Origin: a virus
Reading direction: 5' to 3' (one strand)
UHGV virus genome: UHGV-1555203
DNA: 10,147 nt
Of this stretch, positions 2,929 to 8,710 are shown piece by piece. How positions within the stretch are numbered: position 1 is the first letter of the stretch; the number at the start of each line of letters is the position of its first letter. The position numbers and the translations under genes were made by a program. The notes under the pieces are model-generated. The model saw only the letters and a list, made by a program, of their open reading frames with translations. It was not told the origin of the DNA and did no database searches.

Positions 2929-3225
2929 TCACTCCTGTTCACTGGCCTCTTTGGCCATCTTCAAATACTGTTCAGGGCAATGCGCCATAACGCGCTGAAA
3001 CAGTTCCAGCGCCAGATTGCGTTGCCCCTCATTAAATGCCATTGCCATAGCGTCCATCGGTGAGATAGCGGAAAACACACGGCCTTTCTCCAGCACCGAC
3101 CAGACAACGCGACGCCCCTGTTCACTGCTCATGACAAAGCGAATGTCATCAATTTCACGCTGTGCCATGTCACGTTGCTTACGGGCGTTTTCTTCTTTCA
3201 GTTGATCGTCTTCGTAATCTGTCAT
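2929..3225 (-). CDS. Hypothetical head-morphogenesis protein (98 aa)
   Basis: ORF-track 2929..3225; its ATG overlaps the portal stop (ATGA overlap at 3222..3225), implying translational coupling. No family recognised. Confidence 0.55.
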   Translation of the reverse strand: MTDYEDDQLKEENARKQRDMAQREIDDIRFVMSSEQGRRVVWSVLEKGRVFSAISPMDAMAMAFNEGQRNLALELFQRVMAHCPEQYLKMAKEASEQE

Positions 3226-4901
3226 TGTGATTGCCCACCCTGACCACTAACTGCATTCGCCATAGCTGACAAAACACTCGGATCCGAAGTTTTAGCTTCG
3301 CTTAGCGTCTTGGCACCCTGTGCCGCCGCCATCCCCATCGCCATCATTTGTTGCTGCTGTTGTTGCTGTGCCCGTTGCTGGCGAGCCTGCTCAACCTGTT
3401 CCTGCGGAACAATGACGGTTGGAGACACTCCGGACATATCAGCGAATGCATCGATCGCCTGATCAACGTTGAGTTTGTCGAGAGCTTCTGGTTTCGCTTG
3501 CGCAAGTTGACCAATGAAGTTAACCGTGGACGCCAGACTGGACAGGCCGATAGACTTCTGCGCCTGAGCCATGACGGAAATGTATTCGACCTTCAGGGGC
3601 ATGCCTTCCATCGCGTCAGGCGGTGGCGGCAGCATGTTTTTACGCACCATCATCGAGAAAGAGCGATCAATGAGAGGATTAAGACATTCGTCGTTCAGGC
3701 GCTCCAGAACCGGCCCCAACATCAGAAGTTTTTCTTCTTTCATTTCGATCACCGCTTCCACAGGCATCGAGCGGGTATTGATGTTCTGCAACATCATGAA
3801 CAGATCGACAAAGTAGGCGCTGTTAATGATTTGACGAGTGTCCTGAATGTCTGCCACCAAATCTGCTGTACTGGGGTTAACCAGATAAGCAGGCCTGAAA
3901 CCATCCTGACCAGTAATCTGATCGATATACGTGATGTCGCCAGGAAGAAGGGAGGCACGCTGATTCTTGAGGGAATTCGGAGCAACCATCGGCGGATTGG
4001 TGGCTTTATCAATCAACTGCGACTTGCGCTTCTGGAGAAGCTGCAATGCCTTAACAGGTCCAAGCGCCAGCATACCCGGGCATGATGATCCATAAACATC
4101 TTCGCCGTTAACTTCCCAGCGCGGGGCCATAATTGGAAACTCATCGAATCCGGACTCACGCAACAACTTGTCGTTATCGCCACCAACCTCGTAATAAACC
4201 GATTTGAATGGCTTGTTCTTGCTATCCAGCTTCGATGTATCGCGGTCAATGTTCGGGTAAACCGAATGCATCACTTCAATCCACTTCTCGTAGGTTCCGC
4301 TTTCCCACATGCTTTTTACGGATTCGCTGACGTTATTTAGCCCGAACTCCTGAACAAGCTGACGAACAGTCATAGAGAACTTGCGAAAACAGGTGTCCAC
4401 ACTGCCACGAGGTGAGTTAGCCAGGTAGTAACTGCCTATCGGGAATGGCATTGTGCGAATGATGTCCTCGTCATCCTCCAGCACTGCCATTGCACCAGTG
4501 CTGTATGTGCCGAGGCTTCCGTATAACTGCGGCAGCGACTGATAGAGATTCGACTTATTGAACATATCGTTCATGCGGTTCTGCACCGCCTCAAGCCACA
4601 ACTTAACAGGGCCATAATCCATCATTTCAGGATCTGGCGTAGCCAGGCGAAACCACGGACGCGCGGGGCTTGTGATGCCTGACATCATGCCGCTGGCGAG
4701 AGTGCGCGCCGCCATAGTCCCGGTCGAATCAATAATGCGTGTATTGCGTCGATCGTTACGGTTAACCTCAGAAGCCAGAAAGCGGGAACCACGCGGGTTG
4801 ATGTAATCACTCAACTCGCGCCAGTGCGGCTCGAACGACTGACGCTCGCTTTCAAGTTGTGCGAACTGTTTGTTCAATCGCTCTTTAGTTGTTTCCGCCA
4901 T
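3222..4901 (-). CDS. Portal protein (559 aa)
   Basis: ORF-track 3222..4901; GGAG 8 nt upstream of the ATG; size typical of portal proteins; first large gene after the terminase large subunit; C-terminal Gln-rich tail. Assignment is by synteny and size, not by a search. Confidence 0.7.
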   Translation of the reverse strand: MAETTKERLNKQFAQLESERQSFEPHWRELSDYINPRGSRFLASEVNRNDRRNTRIIDSTGTMAARTLASGMMSGITSPARPWFRLATPDPEMMDYGPVKLWLEAVQNRMNDMFNKSNLYQSLPQLYGSLGTYSTGAMAVLEDDEDIIRTMPFPIGSYYLANSPRGSVDTCFRKFSMTVRQLVQEFGLNNVSESVKSMWESGTYEKWIEVMHSVYPNIDRDTSKLDSKNKPFKSVYYEVGGDNDKLLRESGFDEFPIMAPRWEVNGEDVYGSSCPGMLALGPVKALQLLQKRKSQLIDKATNPPMVAPNSLKNQRASLLPGDITYIDQITGQDGFRPAYLVNPSTADLVADIQDTRQIINSAYFVDLFMMLQNINTRSMPVEAVIEMKEEKLLMLGPVLERLNDECLNPLIDRSFSMMVRKNMLPPPPDAMEGMPLKVEYISVMAQAQKSIGLSSLASTVNFIGQLAQAKPEALDKLNVDQAIDAFADMSGVSPTVIVPQEQVEQARQQRAQQQQQQQMMAMGMAAAQGAKTLSEAKTSDPSVLSAMANAVSGQGGQSQ

Positions 4902-4915
4902 TTCAATGACTCCGG

Positions 4916-5122
4916 TTACTGACCAAGCAGCGTTTTACCGCTGGTATTAGCGGTTGATGTGTCGCCCTGAGAACCGGTAAGCAGCGTAGAACTACGACCA
5001 GCAGCAGCGCGACGGCGACGAGTTTCTTCGTCGCGGGCATCAACAACGGCGGCATCCTGCTCCTGTGGTGCTGCCTGAACTTCTGGTGTTGCAGGCACTG
5101 ATGGTGAGCTACCCATGCACAT
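4916..5122 (-). CDS. Hypothetical small protein (68 aa), low complexity; coding status uncertain
   Basis: ORF-track 4916..5122; ATG preceded by CGGAGTCATTGA, the same 12-nt initiation sequence found before the portal ATG. An overlapping alternative frame (4903..5142) is also open, so the frame is ambiguous. Confidence 0.35.
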   Translation of the reverse strand: MCMGSSPSVPATPEVQAAPQEQDAAVVDARDEETRRRRAAAGRSSTLLTGSQGDTSTANTSGKTLLGQ

Positions 5123-5190
5123 ATCAATGACTCCGTACGCAATTAAATTATTACCAATTTAACCACATATGATTTATTTATCGTAGGTGG

Positions 5191-5219
5191 TTGACATTTA
5201 ACGCACAAATTATTACCTT
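5191..5219 (+). promoter_or_regulatory. Candidate sigma70-type promoter for the plus-strand cassette
   Basis: Perfect -35 TTGACA (5191..5196), 17-bp spacer, -10-like TACCTT (5214..5219; weak, but T1, A2 and T6 present); embedded in an AT-rich block; inverted repeat TTACCT-TTC-AGGTAA (5213..5227) overlaps the -10. Confidence 0.4.
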
Positions 5220-5549
5220 TCAGGTAACAAAAGAGTTCATTCCGGTTACTAACCTGACTGGCTTGTCGTTAAATTGAACAGGTGGAGTGAGCTTTTATTT
5301 TGAGCAGTACGGCGTATGGCACATGCGCCGATAGCGGTCTGGATACGTTTAAGGGGCACCCTCCCTGGCTGTGGCAAACGAACCAGGTAGCCGGAATGTG
5401 CAAGTCGAGCGGTTTTATTCCGCGCACGGGGATTCACCATCCCGGCGATTCGGTGTGACGCCTCGGAAGAGACGAGGGTACAACGATGAGAGCATTTATG
5501 GAGCCGCGACAAAGTGTGGCGCCTTAACAGGCTAAGTGCTCTCAGCGTT

Positions 5550-5626
5550 GTGGCATTAGCTCAGTTGGACAGAGCAACCGCCTTCTAAGCGGTTGGTCGC
5601 AGGTTCGAATCCTGCATGCCACGCCA
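5550..5626 (+). tRNA. tRNA-Arg, anticodon UCU (reads AGA), 77 nt including encoded CCA
   Basis: Hand-folded cloverleaf: acceptor GTGGCAT/ATGCCAC (7 bp, perfect), D-arm GCTC-AGTTGGACA-GAGC, anticodon stem ACCGC/GCGGT with loop CTTCTAA (anticodon TCT), variable TGGTC, T-arm GCAGG-TTCGAAT-CCTGC, discriminator G, CCA. Close to E. coli argU-type tRNA but with different acceptor and anticodon stems. Confidence 0.9.
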
Positions 5627-5669
5627 GAATCACGCCTAAGGACCGTGATGCCAGAAGTTCCAGGTGCTT

Positions 5670-5711
5670 GGCGGTGATAGTTTCCCTTGAAGGACTATCA
5701 CCGCCCTTTTT
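5670..5711 (+). terminator. Intrinsic terminator downstream of the tRNA
   Basis: Perfect 12-bp stem GGCGGTGATAGT / ACTATCACCGCC with a 12-nt loop, followed by CTTTTTA. Confidence 0.6.
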
Positions 5712-5789
5712 ACAGCAGGACGCCATTGCGATGACTTCATGCTGTAAACCCGTACAGCCACGGAAGGCATAACTCATTGCTTCCAGTTC

Positions 5790-5812
5790 GCCCGGTTCGC
5801 CGGGCATTTTTT
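5790..5812 (+). terminator. Second intrinsic terminator / attenuator hairpin abutting the RBS of the 139-aa ORF
   Basis: GCCCGG-TTCG-CCGGGC (6-bp GC stem, UUCG loop) followed by A-TTTTTT, then AAGGTGAG (SD) and ATG at 5824. Confidence 0.55.
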
Positions 5813-5823
5813 AAGGTGAGATC

Positions 5824-6243
5824 ATGAAGACAATTGATATGTTGGCTAAGTATCTAAATGAATGGCCATTAAAATATTCTCGTATCGTTCAGGCTGAAGA
5901 CTGCATTTTTTATGGCGTTTTTGCTGGTAATGAAATGCATTACGAAGTAATTCAGAGTGAGGGACTGGCCGGGTTAACTCTTAGCGAAGACCATGGTACT
6001 AGCGTTACGTTCCATGACTGGATAACAGCACAACGTTCTGAAATGGAAAAAGGCGATGTTTTTGATATTTCTCGCGCTGTTTACGCTAAAGCAAAAAGTG
6101 ATAATGATTACATGAGCGAACACTTATACAACATGAAGTTACAATGCCTGCATGCGGCGCTTATTCAGAATGGGCACTTCGATAAAACAAGTGCCATCAA
6201 TATTGCGGAAGCCATCAACGCTGGATTTAATGCCATTAAGTAA
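5824..6243 (+). CDS. Orphan hypothetical protein (139 aa), moron-type accessory gene; no family recognised
   Basis: ORF-track 5824..6243; strong SD AAGGTGA 6 nt upstream of ATG; visibly AT-richer than flanking phage genes; opposite strand to all neighbouring genes; followed by palindrome and terminator. No TM segment or catalytic motif evident. Confidence 0.7.
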   Translation: MKTIDMLAKYLNEWPLKYSRIVQAEDCIFYGVFAGNEMHYEVIQSEGLAGLTLSEDHGTSVTFHDWITAQRSEMEKGDVFDISRAVYAKAKSDNDYMSEHLYNMKLQCLHAALIQNGHFDKTSAINIAEAINAGFNAIK

Positions 6244-6247
6244 CACC

Positions 6248-6259
6248 GTGACATGTCAC
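6248..6259. repeat. Perfect 12-bp palindrome GTGACATGTCAC, copy 1 (second copy at 8699..8710)
   Basis: Exact self-complementary 12-mer with shared 5' flank TAACACC; lies 5 nt after the stop of the 139-aa ORF and before its terminator. Confidence 0.8.
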
Positions 6260-6263
6260 AAAC

Positions 6264-6290
6264 AGCCAGCCGATGAGCTGGCTTTGTTTT
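6264..6290 (+). terminator. Intrinsic terminator after the 139-aa ORF
   Basis: AGCCAGC-CGATGA-GCTGGCT stem-loop followed by TTGTTTT; a second hairpin ATCCTC-ATCA-GAGGAT follows at 6291..6306. Confidence 0.6.
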
Positions 6291-6333
6291 ATCCTCATCA
6301 GAGGATATCAACGACATTATCCCCACCAGCGGA

Positions 6334-7809
6334 TTAAGCATATGGATCGTAATCTGTGATGGCCTTGCCTTGCTGGTTCTGCTGCCCGGGAATTCGCAGA
6401 CGCTTCGACACAGGGAACGCAAACGTCAGCAGTAGCGCATCGCCTTTACCAGGAGAACGCCCAAGCCGCTCCTTGATATCTTCCTTCGGTTCGATAACGA
6501 TTTTACCGTCCACTCGAACTTTGTACTCTGCCGCAGACAGGTCGTCCGCTGTTTCCTGGTCATCCAGCATGCCGCCCAGCCTCAGCCATGTCTTGCATGA
6601 GTTGAACATCTCCCCACGCTTGTTGAGCATCTGCGGGTCAGTAGACGCGCCACCGAACGGAACAAGTTGCCATGTACGACCCCAGCCATCACCGATTGAC
6701 TTCAGACCAGTTCCGTAACCGAAGTCGATGAACACTGCGTCAGCCTGGTACTGGTCTTCAAAGTCAGCGATACGCTTCGCCATAATCAGATCGTCAGTGG
6801 TCTTGTTGCCAGTCCACAGCACCTTACTGTGCAGCCCCTGCCGCAGGTATATCACAGCGTCATCAACGCCGGAGTATGCCGGGTCAACGCCGATTATCAC
6901 CGGAGCATGTGCAACCTGCGCAGCGGTTACCACCCGTTTCATTGCCTCGTCAGTAAGGCCGGTAGGGATAAACTGCAATTCAGATGCATCCGGGAATATG
7001 CCGCGCACACGGATTTTAACGAAGTCGCTGTCTTCCCCGTAGTCATCAACCCATTTCTGCAACTGCTGTTTGTTAGTGCCTTCCACCGTCCGGCTGTCAA
7101 TCTGCGCAGTTTTCCAGCGGTGTTTATATTTGCGGAAACATTCGCGAAAACGCCCGGTGTTACGTGTAGGGTTTCCGAACGCCACCCAGATAATCTCAGT
7201 GTCTTCGTCCGTAAGCGCACCCTCAGCAACTTCCCACACCAGATCCGCAATGTTCGACGCTTCATCGAATACCACGATGATGCGTTTGCGCTCGTTGTGT
7301 AGTCCGGCGAATGCCTCAGTGTTGTGCTCAGACCAGGGTATTGCGTCAGCCCGCCACCGCTTGTCGTGCCCAGGGTCATTGCTGTACATCGCGGTAGCGG
7401 TACAGGTAAACCAGTCTTTCGTGATAGCAAGGTTCGACCACTTGATAATTTCCGGCCAGGTCTTCGTTCGTAGCTGGTTGTCGGTGTTGGCGGTCACCAC
7501 GACCTTACAATCCTCGCAAGTGGACATGCCCCAGTTGATCAGCATTGAGATGAATGCGGATTTACCAATACCGTGACCAGAAGCGCGTGCCAACATAAGC
7601 GGCTGATAGCGCGTCTCTGGATTCTGCAGGTGATCACGTATCTCTCGGAACGCATCAGCCTGCCACTGACGTGGGCCGGTAGCATGTGCCAGTTCAGTCC
7701 CCTCTTCCCCCCACGGGAACGCATAGAGGGCATAGCCAAGCGGATCGTGAGTGAACCCTGCAATATCCTCGATTAACTGCTCTTCAGGAGATAACGCTGT
7801 ATCTGTCAC
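6334..7809 (-). CDS. terL: Terminase large subunit (491 aa), GTG start overlapping the terS stop
   Basis: ORF-track 6334..7809; deviant P-loop GHGIGKS, Walker B-like IIVVFDEAS, C-terminal nuclease-type acidic motifs (VIIGVDPAYSG...DDAV); GTGA start/stop overlap with the upstream small subunit gene. Confidence 0.9.
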   Translation of the reverse strand: MTDTALSPEEQLIEDIAGFTHDPLGYALYAFPWGEEGTELAHATGPRQWQADAFREIRDHLQNPETRYQPLMLARASGHGIGKSAFISMLINWGMSTCEDCKVVVTANTDNQLRTKTWPEIIKWSNLAITKDWFTCTATAMYSNDPGHDKRWRADAIPWSEHNTEAFAGLHNERKRIIVVFDEASNIADLVWEVAEGALTDEDTEIIWVAFGNPTRNTGRFRECFRKYKHRWKTAQIDSRTVEGTNKQQLQKWVDDYGEDSDFVKIRVRGIFPDASELQFIPTGLTDEAMKRVVTAAQVAHAPVIIGVDPAYSGVDDAVIYLRQGLHSKVLWTGNKTTDDLIMAKRIADFEDQYQADAVFIDFGYGTGLKSIGDGWGRTWQLVPFGGASTDPQMLNKRGEMFNSCKTWLRLGGMLDDQETADDLSAAEYKVRVDGKIVIEPKEDIKERLGRSPGKGDALLLTFAFPVSKRLRIPGQQNQQGKAITDYDPYA

Positions 7810-8402
7810 TGATTACCATCCTGACGTTCTTTGAGTCGCTTCCTGGCTGCTGCTATGCGATCAGCAATTGTCACATTCACATTAACATCCAGGCGTTCTT
7901 TGAATGCGTTGACGTCGACGTGCTTACCAATCAGTTCGAGGTTCTTCACCTTGTCAGGCCATTTAATTTTTTTGAGGATTGTCTCTATCGAATCCTCGTT
8001 CATGTTCATGATGGTCGATGACAGATCAAAGCCGCTAAGCGTAGTGCGCCAGATTTTCGGCCACTCGCGGATTGGCTTAAGGCTCCCATCGTCGTTGAGG
8101 ATGTCGATCACGTCCATCTGGTCGATCTCCACCAGGCGCATGAGAACGTAATCAGCACTGACGCGCATTCGTTTGTTGCGCTCCTCCATCAACTCGGCAA
8201 TCCGTTTCTGAATGCGTTCATCGCGCATCATGACACTGGCTTTAACTGCCGCTGTATTTGGGGAGAATCCTGCGTTAATCGCAGCCTGAGTCTGATTTTC
8301 AGGCGTTTTGATGTATGACTGGCAATAAGCCTCCTGCATTGCTGTTAGTGGCTTAAATTGCGTTGATTTGCGTTTATAGGTTTTAGGTTCAGCAGGCATC
8401 AT
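7806..8402 (-). CDS. terS: Terminase small subunit (about 198 aa from ATG 8402; track ORF extends to TTG 8480)
   Basis: N-terminal region LTAMQEAYCQSYIKTPENQTQAAINAGFSPNTAAVKAS matches the conserved helix-turn-helix core of small terminases; immediately upstream of and coupled to terL. The TTG-initiated extension (TITTTVTITTVV) is probably untranslated. Confidence 0.85.
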   Translation of the reverse strand: MMPAEPKTYKRKSTQFKPLTAMQEAYCQSYIKTPENQTQAAINAGFSPNTAAVKASVMMRDERIQKRIAELMEERNKRMRVSADYVLMRLVEIDQMDVIDILNDDGSLKPIREWPKIWRTTLSGFDLSSTIMNMNEDSIETILKKIKWPDKVKNLELIGKHVDVNAFKERLDVNVNVTIADRIAAARKRLKERQDGNQ

Positions 8403-8409
8403 AACCACC

Positions 8410-8438
8410 GTGGTAATAGTTACCGTTGTGGTAATAGT
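8410..8438. repeat. Tandem direct repeat GTGGTAATAGT (x2, 18-bp period) immediately upstream of the terS start
   Basis: Exact 11-mer at 8410..8420 and 8428..8438; on the coding strand reads ACTATTACCAC-N7-ACTATTACCAC ending 8 nt before the ATG. Confidence 0.7.
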
Positions 8439-8476
8439 ACCATGCAAAATAAAGCCGCCATAGTTGGCGGCAGTAT

Positions 8477-8710
8477 TCAAAGTCCATCAAATTCATCGTA
8501 AAAACTCTCGTCAAGATACCCTTTCCATTTACCGCGAATGAAAATTACATCCTCGCCGCAAGGGTGCTGACTGTCGATAACTATATCCCTCCTGGCGCAA
8601 CCATACTTATGCATGAGAAATTTAACCTCTTTCGGAAAATTAGCTGAGTTATCTCTCATATCTTCAAGGTCGTAGCGTATTTTTGGCATAACACCTTCGT
8701 GACATGTCAC
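8477..8710 (-). CDS. Hypothetical small protein (77 aa from GTG 8710, or 70 aa from ATG 8689)
   Basis: ORF-track 8477..8710; GTG start overlaps the upstream stop (GTGA), internal ATG at 8689 preceded by AAGGTG; stop overlaps the terS-frame TTG. No family recognised. Confidence 0.5.
   Translation of the reverse strand: MTCHEGVMPKIRYDLEDMRDNSANFPKEVKFLMHKYGCARRDIVIDSQHPCGEDVIFIRGKWKGYLDESFYDEFDGL
8699..8710. repeat. Perfect 12-bp palindrome GTGACATGTCAC, copy 2
   Basis: Identical to 6248..6259 including flank TAACACC (with 3-bp insert TTC); straddles the stop of the 113-aa gene and the start of the next gene. Confidence 0.8.

Follow-up and report, generated by a model that had tools for sequence, protein, structure and literature searches.

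A conserved pseudoknotted RNA beside tRNA-Arg(UCU) forms a family carried by unrelated temperate phages of Enterobacterales

The plus strand of virus genome UHGV-1555203, of which we analysed a stretch of 10,147 nucleotides (nt; hereafter the window), contains 330 nt (5220–5549) between a promoter-like site and a transfer RNA (tRNA) gene, and the question raised by this locus is what these nucleotides encode. A first-pass annotation, made from the sequence alone, had treated the interval as one GC-rich untranslated leader and had offered two readings: a structured small RNA, or a processed leader, transcribed together with the tRNA, or the eroded remains of further tRNA genes. Our comparative analysis shows that 5309–5550 of the plus strand encodes an RNA of ~240 nt, made of a pseudoknotted core and a long hairpin with a variable tip, and leaves us in very little doubt that this RNA is a discrete family present in unrelated temperate phages of Enterobacterales. 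The 330 nt do not stand as a single element, since only 5309–5549 is widely conserved and 5220–5308 is lineage-specific. Their GC enrichment is mild (53%, against 50% for the whole window); it holds for the conserved core (60% at 5309–5480) and not for the 5′ part (40% at 5220–5308).

The phage is not lambdoid, as had been supposed, but a Uetakevirus of the phiV10/TL-2011b/epsilon15 type (~98% identity). The 651 nt around the element are 98–99% identical to the Uetakeviruses phiV10, TL-2011b and O157 typing phages 9 and 10, as well as to prophages of hundreds of Escherichia coli genomes. Positions 5309–5549 are in addition ~80% identical to DNA in unrelated phages, namely the lambdoids cdtI, mEp460, Ayreon and many Stx2 phages and the P1 family (P1, P7, D6, SJ46 and RCS47), together with 590 PLSDB plasmids, and the left edge of homology falls at 5309 in both P1 and the lambdoids. 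Weaker matches occur in phages of Enterobacter, Salmonella and Klebsiella and in one phage reported from Stenotrophomonas. An invariant 19-mer within the element, GGTAGCCGGAATGTGCAAG, matches at least 120 IMG/VR contigs and 24 species representatives; among the matches listed, its hosts comprise 12 genera of Enterobacterales plus two Bacillota contigs from metagenome-assembled genomes. Of 5426 complete E. coli genomes, 1836 carry the core, at 2467 places in all (554 on plasmids), with no feature annotated over it among the matches listed. There is one copy per prophage and a median of one per genome. No copy was found in CPS-53, a syntenic prophage remnant and the sole prophage of E. coli K-12 that was checked.

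The conserved RNA core spans 172 nt of the plus strand (5309–5480; alignments A1, A2 and A3). Its first hairpin, H1, covaries and pairs 5310–5317 with 5323–5330 around the loop GGCAC. H2 pairs 5339–5342 with 5383–5386 and, further in, 5346–5349 with 5377–5380, beneath a variable apex. The invariant 19-mer (5386–5404) forms an unpaired block, after which comes H3, a small variable hairpin that is predicted only (5409–5412 with 5420–5423). H4 pairs 5429–5432 with 5440–5443, and CACC in its loop (5435–5438) pairs with GGTG at 5452–5455 to form H5, an H-type pseudoknot. H6 pairs 5461–5465 with 5473–5477 around the loop GAAGAGA. Three inverted repeats had already been picked out by eye. The CCTCG/CGAGG hairpin at 5461–5477 is exactly H6, and it covaries, while the GGCG/CGCC repeat is a real hairpin (H1, 5310–5330) lying ~10 nt to the left of where it had been placed. 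As for the CCTGG/CCAGG repeat, its CCAGG arm is genuine (5383–5387), but the conserved partner is CTGG at 5339–5342 and not CCTGG at 5364–5368.

In the alignments, perfectly identical blocks lie between hairpins of variable length whose arms carry compensatory changes. On A3 (48 non-redundant sequences, at most ~94% identical to each other), 96.1% of 1198 pair cells are standard pairs, compared to 27–48% when the 3′ partners are slid by 1–3 columns (26–50% across A2 and A3), and both-sided changes are seen in 13 of 25 pairs (11 to 13 pairs across A2 and A3); these counts leave out the H2 apex, H3 and the 5′ strand of the downstream hairpin stem, which MAFFT did not align. All five covariation measures on A3 lie above every one of 500 column shuffles, and A2 (35 sequences) gives the same pairing picture. 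A mutual-information scan of 151 unique copies, performed with no structure supplied, placed at the top nine pairs, each of which belongs to the proposed H1, H2, H4, H6 or pseudoknot; for example, the pseudoknot pair 5435–5455 is C-G in 128 copies and A-U in 23. Covariation of the hairpins across homologous phages, proposed earlier as a check, is thus found by pair counts, controls and scan alike. Two H1 positions are G·U in 27 and 46 of the 48 sequences and would show C·A or A·C mismatches on the opposite strand, which identifies the plus strand as the functional one. Folding energy is modestly unusual relative to shuffles (z = −2.9 for the plus strand and −3.2 for the minus strand); with z near −3 on both strands, sequence and folding energy alone are not decisive, and the deciding evidence is comparative. 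Covariance model R1 has a single match in the window (5304–5482, plus strand, 144.5 bits), which demonstrates uniqueness only, the window sequence being in its seed.

We also came across two more distant copies, a divergent full-length core (locus L305, 7068–7209, 40 bits) and a half core (L272, 3180–3265, 43 bits), in which the pseudoknot and H6 half is kept and the 5′ half is different. They hint at a wider superfamily.

The element does not behave as a protein gene. Even the best reading frame stays open in no more than 33% of 52 homologues, indels around H2 and H3 have lengths evenly divided among the three residues modulo 3, and variability at the three codon phases (0.72, 0.80 and 0.72) has no 3-nt periodicity. 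The 87-residue minus-strand open reading frame (ORF) noted earlier at 5249–5512 does exist but is not conserved. On the plus strand, where no ORF with a ribosome-binding site had been seen, none is conserved, although a few short ones have Shine-Dalgarno-like sequence upstream. Where ‘hypothetical proteins’ are annotated over the element, as in mEp460_037 and a Tyrion coding sequence, they disagree in strand and extent. Nor does 5309–5549 represent eroded tRNA genes: ARAGORN calls a single tRNA (5550–5626), the Rfam tRNA model RF00005 adds no second match and no model of the tRNA clan has one in 5220–5549, even at E ≤ 10, and the covarying fold of four hairpins and a pseudoknot contains no cloverleaf.

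The covariance-model scan suggested for the interval was run against Rfam 15, and no family fits the element, be it GOLLD, ROOL, a put-like RNA, a riboswitch, a ribozyme, Y RNA or tmRNA. Nothing overlaps the core in the window at the gathering score or in 5000–5900 at E ≤ 10, and among related loci nothing was found over the element in 15 loci at the gathering score and in 13 at E ≤ 5. The core has no meaningful match to the rrn operon. Literature searches by sequence and topic, to which subscription journals were mostly out of reach, yielded no description of the element, and queries with the invariant 19-mer and with the ends of the tRNA-shaped module described below returned nothing; a P1 transcriptome preprint leaves the region of the element unmentioned. 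We think it unlikely, if far from negligible, that the element has already been described under another name. Two candidates were rejected as different RNAs: svsR, of 77 nt, lies within the 3′ end of cI, and the Pas small RNAs are Hfq-type and restricted to Escherichia and Shigella.

The core is followed on the plus strand by a long hairpin that we call type A (5481–5550), in which 5481–5494 pair with 5537–5550 around a tip at 5495–5536 and whose stem shows compensatory variants. The pair that closes it includes G5550, the first nucleotide of the tRNA. With the tips trimmed, each of 35 hairpins folds to 14–20 base pairs, and these comprise 30 strand combinations. The tips, by contrast with the stem, are hypervariable and unrelated between loci (44 sequence clusters of 9–111 nt, by an imperfect extraction), and the allele in the window is common to the lambdoid cdtI and a Klebsiella prophage. 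The tRNA reported earlier is confirmed as a plus-strand tRNA-Arg(UCU) at 5550–5626 (ARAGORN anticodon tct; Rfam 73.3 bits). After it come a conserved plus-strand hairpin, ATCACG-CCTAAGGAC-CGTGAT (5629–5649), and an intrinsic terminator of 14 pairs then CTTTTT (5670–5711, plus strand), identified by a terminator scan, which ends the RNA unit and is kept together with it in lambdoid contexts. Equivalents of the 5629–5649 hairpin are found in other phages after true tRNA-Arg and after tRNA-shaped modules, and UUUCCCUUGA in the terminator loop is a motif that relatives also have in their H2 apex. Further on, another GC-rich hairpin with a T-run (5790–5811) ends 12 nt before the ATG of the ORF at 5824 and abuts its ribosome-binding site, AAGGTGAG; the arrangement is kept in epsilon15 and is annotated there as a terminator. 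Among 205 instances of the core, tRNA-Arg(UCU) lies directly downstream in 43, mostly 70–80 nt from the core 3′ end, and tRNA-Ile2 lies immediately upstream in 28. Of the two original readings it is therefore the structured small RNA or processed leader that is upheld, by helices and a pseudoknot that covary across phages and by a promoter-to-terminator unit that contains the tRNA.

Epsilon15 itself (L005, 2530–2640) has lost both the RNA and the tRNA, and H1 with half of H2 is fused there to the 3′ half of the terminator via TTCCCTTGATGCT. This sequence occurs in both the H2 apex and the terminator loop, and a UCCCUUG/UUCCUU motif recurs in both loops.

The promoter-like site, read from the sequence, consists of TTGACA (5190–5195), a 17-nt spacer and TACCTT (5213–5218) on the plus strand. 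The −10 hexamer matches the consensus at 3 of 6 positions only, and a strict consensus scan did not call the promoter. The TTGACA named in the first-pass annotation is nevertheless present, and both hexamers recur in epsilon15 and across 34 distinct upstream regions from relatives. Transcription is predicted to start at ~5225. Overlapping the −10 hexamer and the predicted start is a palindrome, TTACCTTTCAGGTAA (5213–5227, strandless), which is the sole match in the window (0 expected from 200 shuffles). A homologous ATTACCTTTTAGGTAAT is annotated in the epsilon15 record as a ‘repressor / lysogeny’ binding site, and on this annotation we base the putative assignment of TTACCTTTCAGGTAA as a phage-repressor operator. 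The 5′ leader (5225–5308, plus strand), with a hairpin at 5242–5261, is conserved among Uetakeviruses only (query positions 63–145 match Tyrion, PAT1 and epsilon15) and is missing from the copies in P1 and lambdoids, where homology sets in abruptly at 5309. Among 158 distinct upstream regions, 77 have a promoter-like site at most 150 nt upstream of the element, compared to 26 in shuffles.

Classification of the 205 instances gave 88 with a cI-like gene upstream on the same strand, 66 of the Uetakevirus type and 22 with ban downstream. In cdtI, the cI terminator is followed by a sigma-70 promoter matching at 11 of 12 positions just upstream of the element, and the promoter spacer and start region carry (A)TGTAC-N9-GTACA(T) repeats as in the cI-cro intergenic region. 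The shared operator repeats identify this promoter as PL/OL and thereby the element as the leader of the early-left operon. The cdtI core begins ~40 nt after the predicted promoter start, and a terminator lies before the first early-left protein gene. Lambda nutL and HK022 putL occupy the same place in early-left leaders. In some lambdoid relatives (L093, L037, L050 and L031), a boxB-like hairpin and then an rrn-type boxA (GCTCTTTAACAA or close variants) come directly after the core, and these probably form a nutL-like site that is a separate element. Neither part of a lambda-type nut site (boxA CGCTCTTA or GCTCTTTAACAA, and a boxB hairpin) was found in the window at 5220–5549. The core of P1 begins 14 nt past tRNA-Ile (trnI) and ~100 nt short of ban, within the C1-controlled ban operon and 2.3 kb from Pban. 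By the anatomy of the loci, then, the element always belongs, in each of the three phage types, to the sense strand of an early transcript under repressor control.

In many phages, the slot equivalent to 5550–5626 is filled by a tRNA-shaped module instead of a tRNA (L006, 3152–3290; L007, L011, L014 and others). It reads GTGGTGAATGCGCAGGCTGATGCGC, a variable insert of 30–180 nt and AGCCGGAGATCAGCACCGGCCACCAC, often then ACCA. An acceptor-like GUGGUG/CACCAC encloses two hairpins with complementary loops, GCUGAU and AUCAGC, and the insert replaces the anticodon arm. The module matches at least 120 IMG/VR contigs, mostly without the core; taken together, modules and type-A hairpins occur without the core in 85 of the 121 cases with enough flank. 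The ORFs that begin with its GTG are short and vary, and the module, a widespread family apart from the core, matches none in Rfam. The idea of decayed tRNAs has a kernel here, in that a tRNA-shaped module fills the tRNA-Arg slot elsewhere and some hairpin tips are T-arm-like or anticodon-arm-like. Type-A tips repeatedly carry GGGC[U/C]CAUAACCC (L002, 4437–4449, and ~60 other sites in the fetched loci), which is an initiator-tRNA anticodon stem-loop with three G-C pairs and a CAU anticodon. The motif was matched 61 times in 2.8 Mb, although chance would yield far fewer than one match, and only one of the 61 is a real tRNA-Met gene. One module insert (L104, 1953–1999, minus strand of the locus; also in L077) resembles small-subunit ribosomal RNA (rRNA) helix 11 in sense orientation, matching positions 172–218 of an Rfam small-subunit rRNA model (E = 6e-7) and being ~77% identical to E. 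coli 16S with compensatory changes. We rejected the notion that the variable inserts are generally rRNA-derived, as only this one allele resembles 16S helix 11. A further type-A tip (L066, 384–430) contains a near-consensus type I hammerhead motif, CUGAAGAG...CGAAAC...GUC flanked by GCGCG/CGCGC; it was seen in a single contig, and its score of 28.7 bits on the Rfam model (E = 0.0035) lies below the gathering score of 34.

What might such an RNA do? Structured RNAs this conserved, with a pseudoknot and long invariant single-stranded blocks, almost always bind a specific partner, be it a protein, polymerase, ribosome or ligand. We postulate that transcription from the 5190–5218 promoter would yield a unit of ~490 nt, comprising leader, core, hairpin, tRNA-Arg(UCU), hairpin and the 5670–5711 terminator. 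RNase P cleaves at tRNA 5′ ends, and in maturing this tRNA it would cut the RNA free and set its 3′ end; in P1, the tRNA-Ile immediately upstream would set the 5′ end instead. Under repressor control the RNA would be made as soon as lytic growth starts. This account of production, an operator-overlapped promoter transcript from which tRNA maturation frees the RNA, is probable on the evidence of the sequence. More tentatively, and with somewhat less than even confidence, we suggest that the processed RNA is stable and acts in trans early in infection by binding one conserved host component, which would explain why phages of Escherichia, Salmonella, Klebsiella, Enterobacter and Citrobacter all keep the unpaired nucleotides unchanged. 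The variable hairpin, like the tRNA or the tRNA-shaped module, would on this view be cargo that can be exchanged. Action in trans is favoured by the element's own terminator, the mobility of the cassette, its tRNA or tRNA-like punctuation and the invariant unpaired blocks across host genera. As a whole, the combination of structured RNA, early transcription with processing, and trans action is our best explanation, though one that falls slightly short of an even chance.

Several points weigh against this explanation. Every statement on expression is inferred from sequence, the −10 hexamer is weak, and the operator assignment is borrowed from the annotation of another record. In 132 of the 205 instances ARAGORN calls no tRNA within 600 nt, so tRNA processing can be the general way of release only if the tRNA-shaped modules are processed as well. 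The P1 core has no promoter or terminator of its own, and in lambdoids the element forms part of the PL leader, ahead of a terminator and the early genes, which suits a role in cis at least equally. Lastly, the late operon must read through the region on the minus strand, and antisense effects are possible.

The chief rival takes up the cis role, and we regard it as a serious possibility that is nonetheless unlikely. The core would fold on the nascent early transcript, bind the elongating RNA polymerase and let it pass terminators, namely 5670–5711 and 5790–5811 ahead of ORF 5824–6243 in the window and the terminator before the early-left genes in lambdoids. The model for such an antiterminator is the put RNA of HK022, of ~70 nt with two stem-loops, whose putL copy lies just downstream of PL (PMC9378689). 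Like put, the element is an RNA rather than a protein and is conserved along with its structure. It lies close to the promoter, in sense orientation, in early operons under repressor control; in lambdoid relatives, where transcription from the early-left promoter reaches it first and terminators come after it, it holds the place of nutL and putL, with comparable placement behind the operator-controlled promoter of the window and in the C1-controlled ban operon of P1. An intrinsic terminator separates the core from the first protein gene in both cdtI and the window, where the second one abuts the ribosome-binding site of ORF 5824, and no N-like gene is annotated downstream in cdtI or mEp460. 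Other points count against this rival. A search of the HK022 early region by nhmmer with the core profile found no sequence similarity (best E 0.43), and the ~170-nt pseudoknotted fold, with its 19-nt invariant block, is ~2.5 times the size of put. A second, putR-like copy was sought in the same phages and none was found downstream of PR, the one exception to single copies being two tandem copies in one contig (L031). The element also occurs in P1 and in podoviruses, and in P1 it lies far from Pban and just before ban, while those relatives with boxB-like and rrn-type boxA sequences after the core seem to use N/Nus antitermination too.

The remaining readings are less likely. The core could be a platform for the processing or stability of cargo RNAs, protecting the 5′ end and guiding maturation with no target of its own; the modular architecture, the exchangeable 3′ modules, tip alleles common to unrelated backbones and the flanking tRNAs all fit. 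We nevertheless hold this to be improbable, because P1 keeps the core alone, with neither hairpin nor tRNA-shaped module, because the frequent occurrence of modules and hairpins by themselves means that the cargo does not need the core, and because a 19-nt invariant single-stranded block exceeds what a stabiliser would need. Slightly more doubtful still is an extension of the modular idea, in which the core would be the 5′ module of a phage RNA ‘display’ system. The type-A hairpin and tRNA-shaped module would carry exchangeable cassettes copying pieces of the translation apparatus (the initiator-tRNA-type anticodon arm GGGCYCAUAACCC, T-arm-like hairpins and the 16S helix-11-like hairpin), produced when lytic growth begins, so that host nucleases attacking tRNA or rRNA would meet decoys or spare parts; the simplest such cassettes would be true phage tRNAs such as Arg(UCU). 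Were the early leader to contain a riboswitch or self-cleaving ribozyme, this would account for highly conserved junction nucleotides and a pseudoknot, as found in many aptamers and ribozymes, and the hammerhead-like tip of one relative points the same way. Against this stand the absence of a conserved expression platform (different phages have a type-A hairpin, a nut-like site or the ban leader after the core), the unrelated downstream genes and the lack of a match between the core and any Rfam model of either class at E ≤ 10, and we consider the reading quite improbable. Least credible, to the point that we scarcely entertain it, is that there is no RNA at all but a protein gene, such as the 87-residue minus-strand ORF, or a DNA site such as a miniature inverted-repeat transposable element (MITE), an attachment site or an origin. 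Sharp boundaries and presence in unrelated genomes do resemble a mobile DNA element, and hypothetical proteins are annotated over it in some records. Those annotations conflict, though; no frame is open in more than one-third of homologues, and indel lengths are not tied to multiples of 3. The compensatory changes keep Watson-Crick and G·U pairs on one strand only, pseudoknot included, which is needless for a site in duplex DNA, and one copy per prophage, with a median of one per genome, is unlike a MITE.

In kind, the element joins the orphan structured phage RNAs (GOLLD, ROOL and the T4 stable RNAs) and the early-leader RNAs (put and nut). We made the comparison by model for Rfam families, by nhmmer of the HK022 early region for put and from description only for the T4 RNAs. 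GOLLD and ROOL, treated by Weinberg et al. and in Rfam entries, are reportedly large orphan structured RNAs of prophages that often sit beside tRNA genes. Our element is likewise phage-borne and elaborately structured, adjoins or interleaves with tRNA genes and has variable regions beside a conserved core. It is, however, ~170–240 nt long compared to 500–800 nt, and belongs to Enterobacterales rather than mainly Firmicutes or lake metagenomes; no Rfam model of either RNA matches the window or 28 related loci. The tRNA cluster of phage T4 encodes stable RNAs (species 1 and 2, or RNA C and D) that are co-transcribed with tRNAs and released by the tRNA-processing machinery. The likeness of these non-coding RNAs to ours, co-transcription with phage tRNAs included, is one of description; T4 is virulent and unrelated, and no sequence or structural relation is expected. 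C4 antisense RNA and isrK are small phage RNAs of the same lambdoid relatives and P1, but they map to the PR-side operon, beside an antirepressor gene (L002, 1777–1965, and L006, 708–896; both at Rfam gathering level), and their Rfam models do not match the element. The C4/isrK region of the lambdoid relatives is a P1-immI-like module that is already known.

In the window, the RNA unit lies in a gap between minus-strand genes, with the structural genes gp3 (4916–5122) and portal (3222–4901) to its left and the terminase genes (6334–8480) on its other side. Since minus-strand gene blocks flank 5123–6333, late transcripts presumably cross the RNA unit in antisense, and the epsilon15 record annotates an RNase III processing site on the late (minus) strand in the region equivalent to ~5214–5313. 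The plus-strand ORF at 5824–6243, which belongs to the rightward unit after the leader, tRNA-Arg and the two terminator-like hairpins, matched no Pfam family. In a Klebsiella relative (L009, 3011–3532), the gene after the RNA-tRNA unit encodes a Tad2-like Thoeris anti-defence protein (Pfam E = 4e-26). The gene position after the unit looks like a variable accessory or anti-defence slot.

The element is thus an unannotated structured RNA that matches no catalogued family and is carried by about one-third of complete E. coli genomes. If K-12 lacks it altogether, this could explain its omission from small-RNA surveys based on K-12. A covariance model would stop annotators from calling spurious ‘hypothetical proteins’ over it. 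In P1, in Stx-converting and other lambdoid phages and in epsilon15-like phages, the element appears to be part of the earliest RNA of the switch to lytic growth, and its partner could reveal a new phage control of early transcription, or a new host-takeover or anti-defence RNA.

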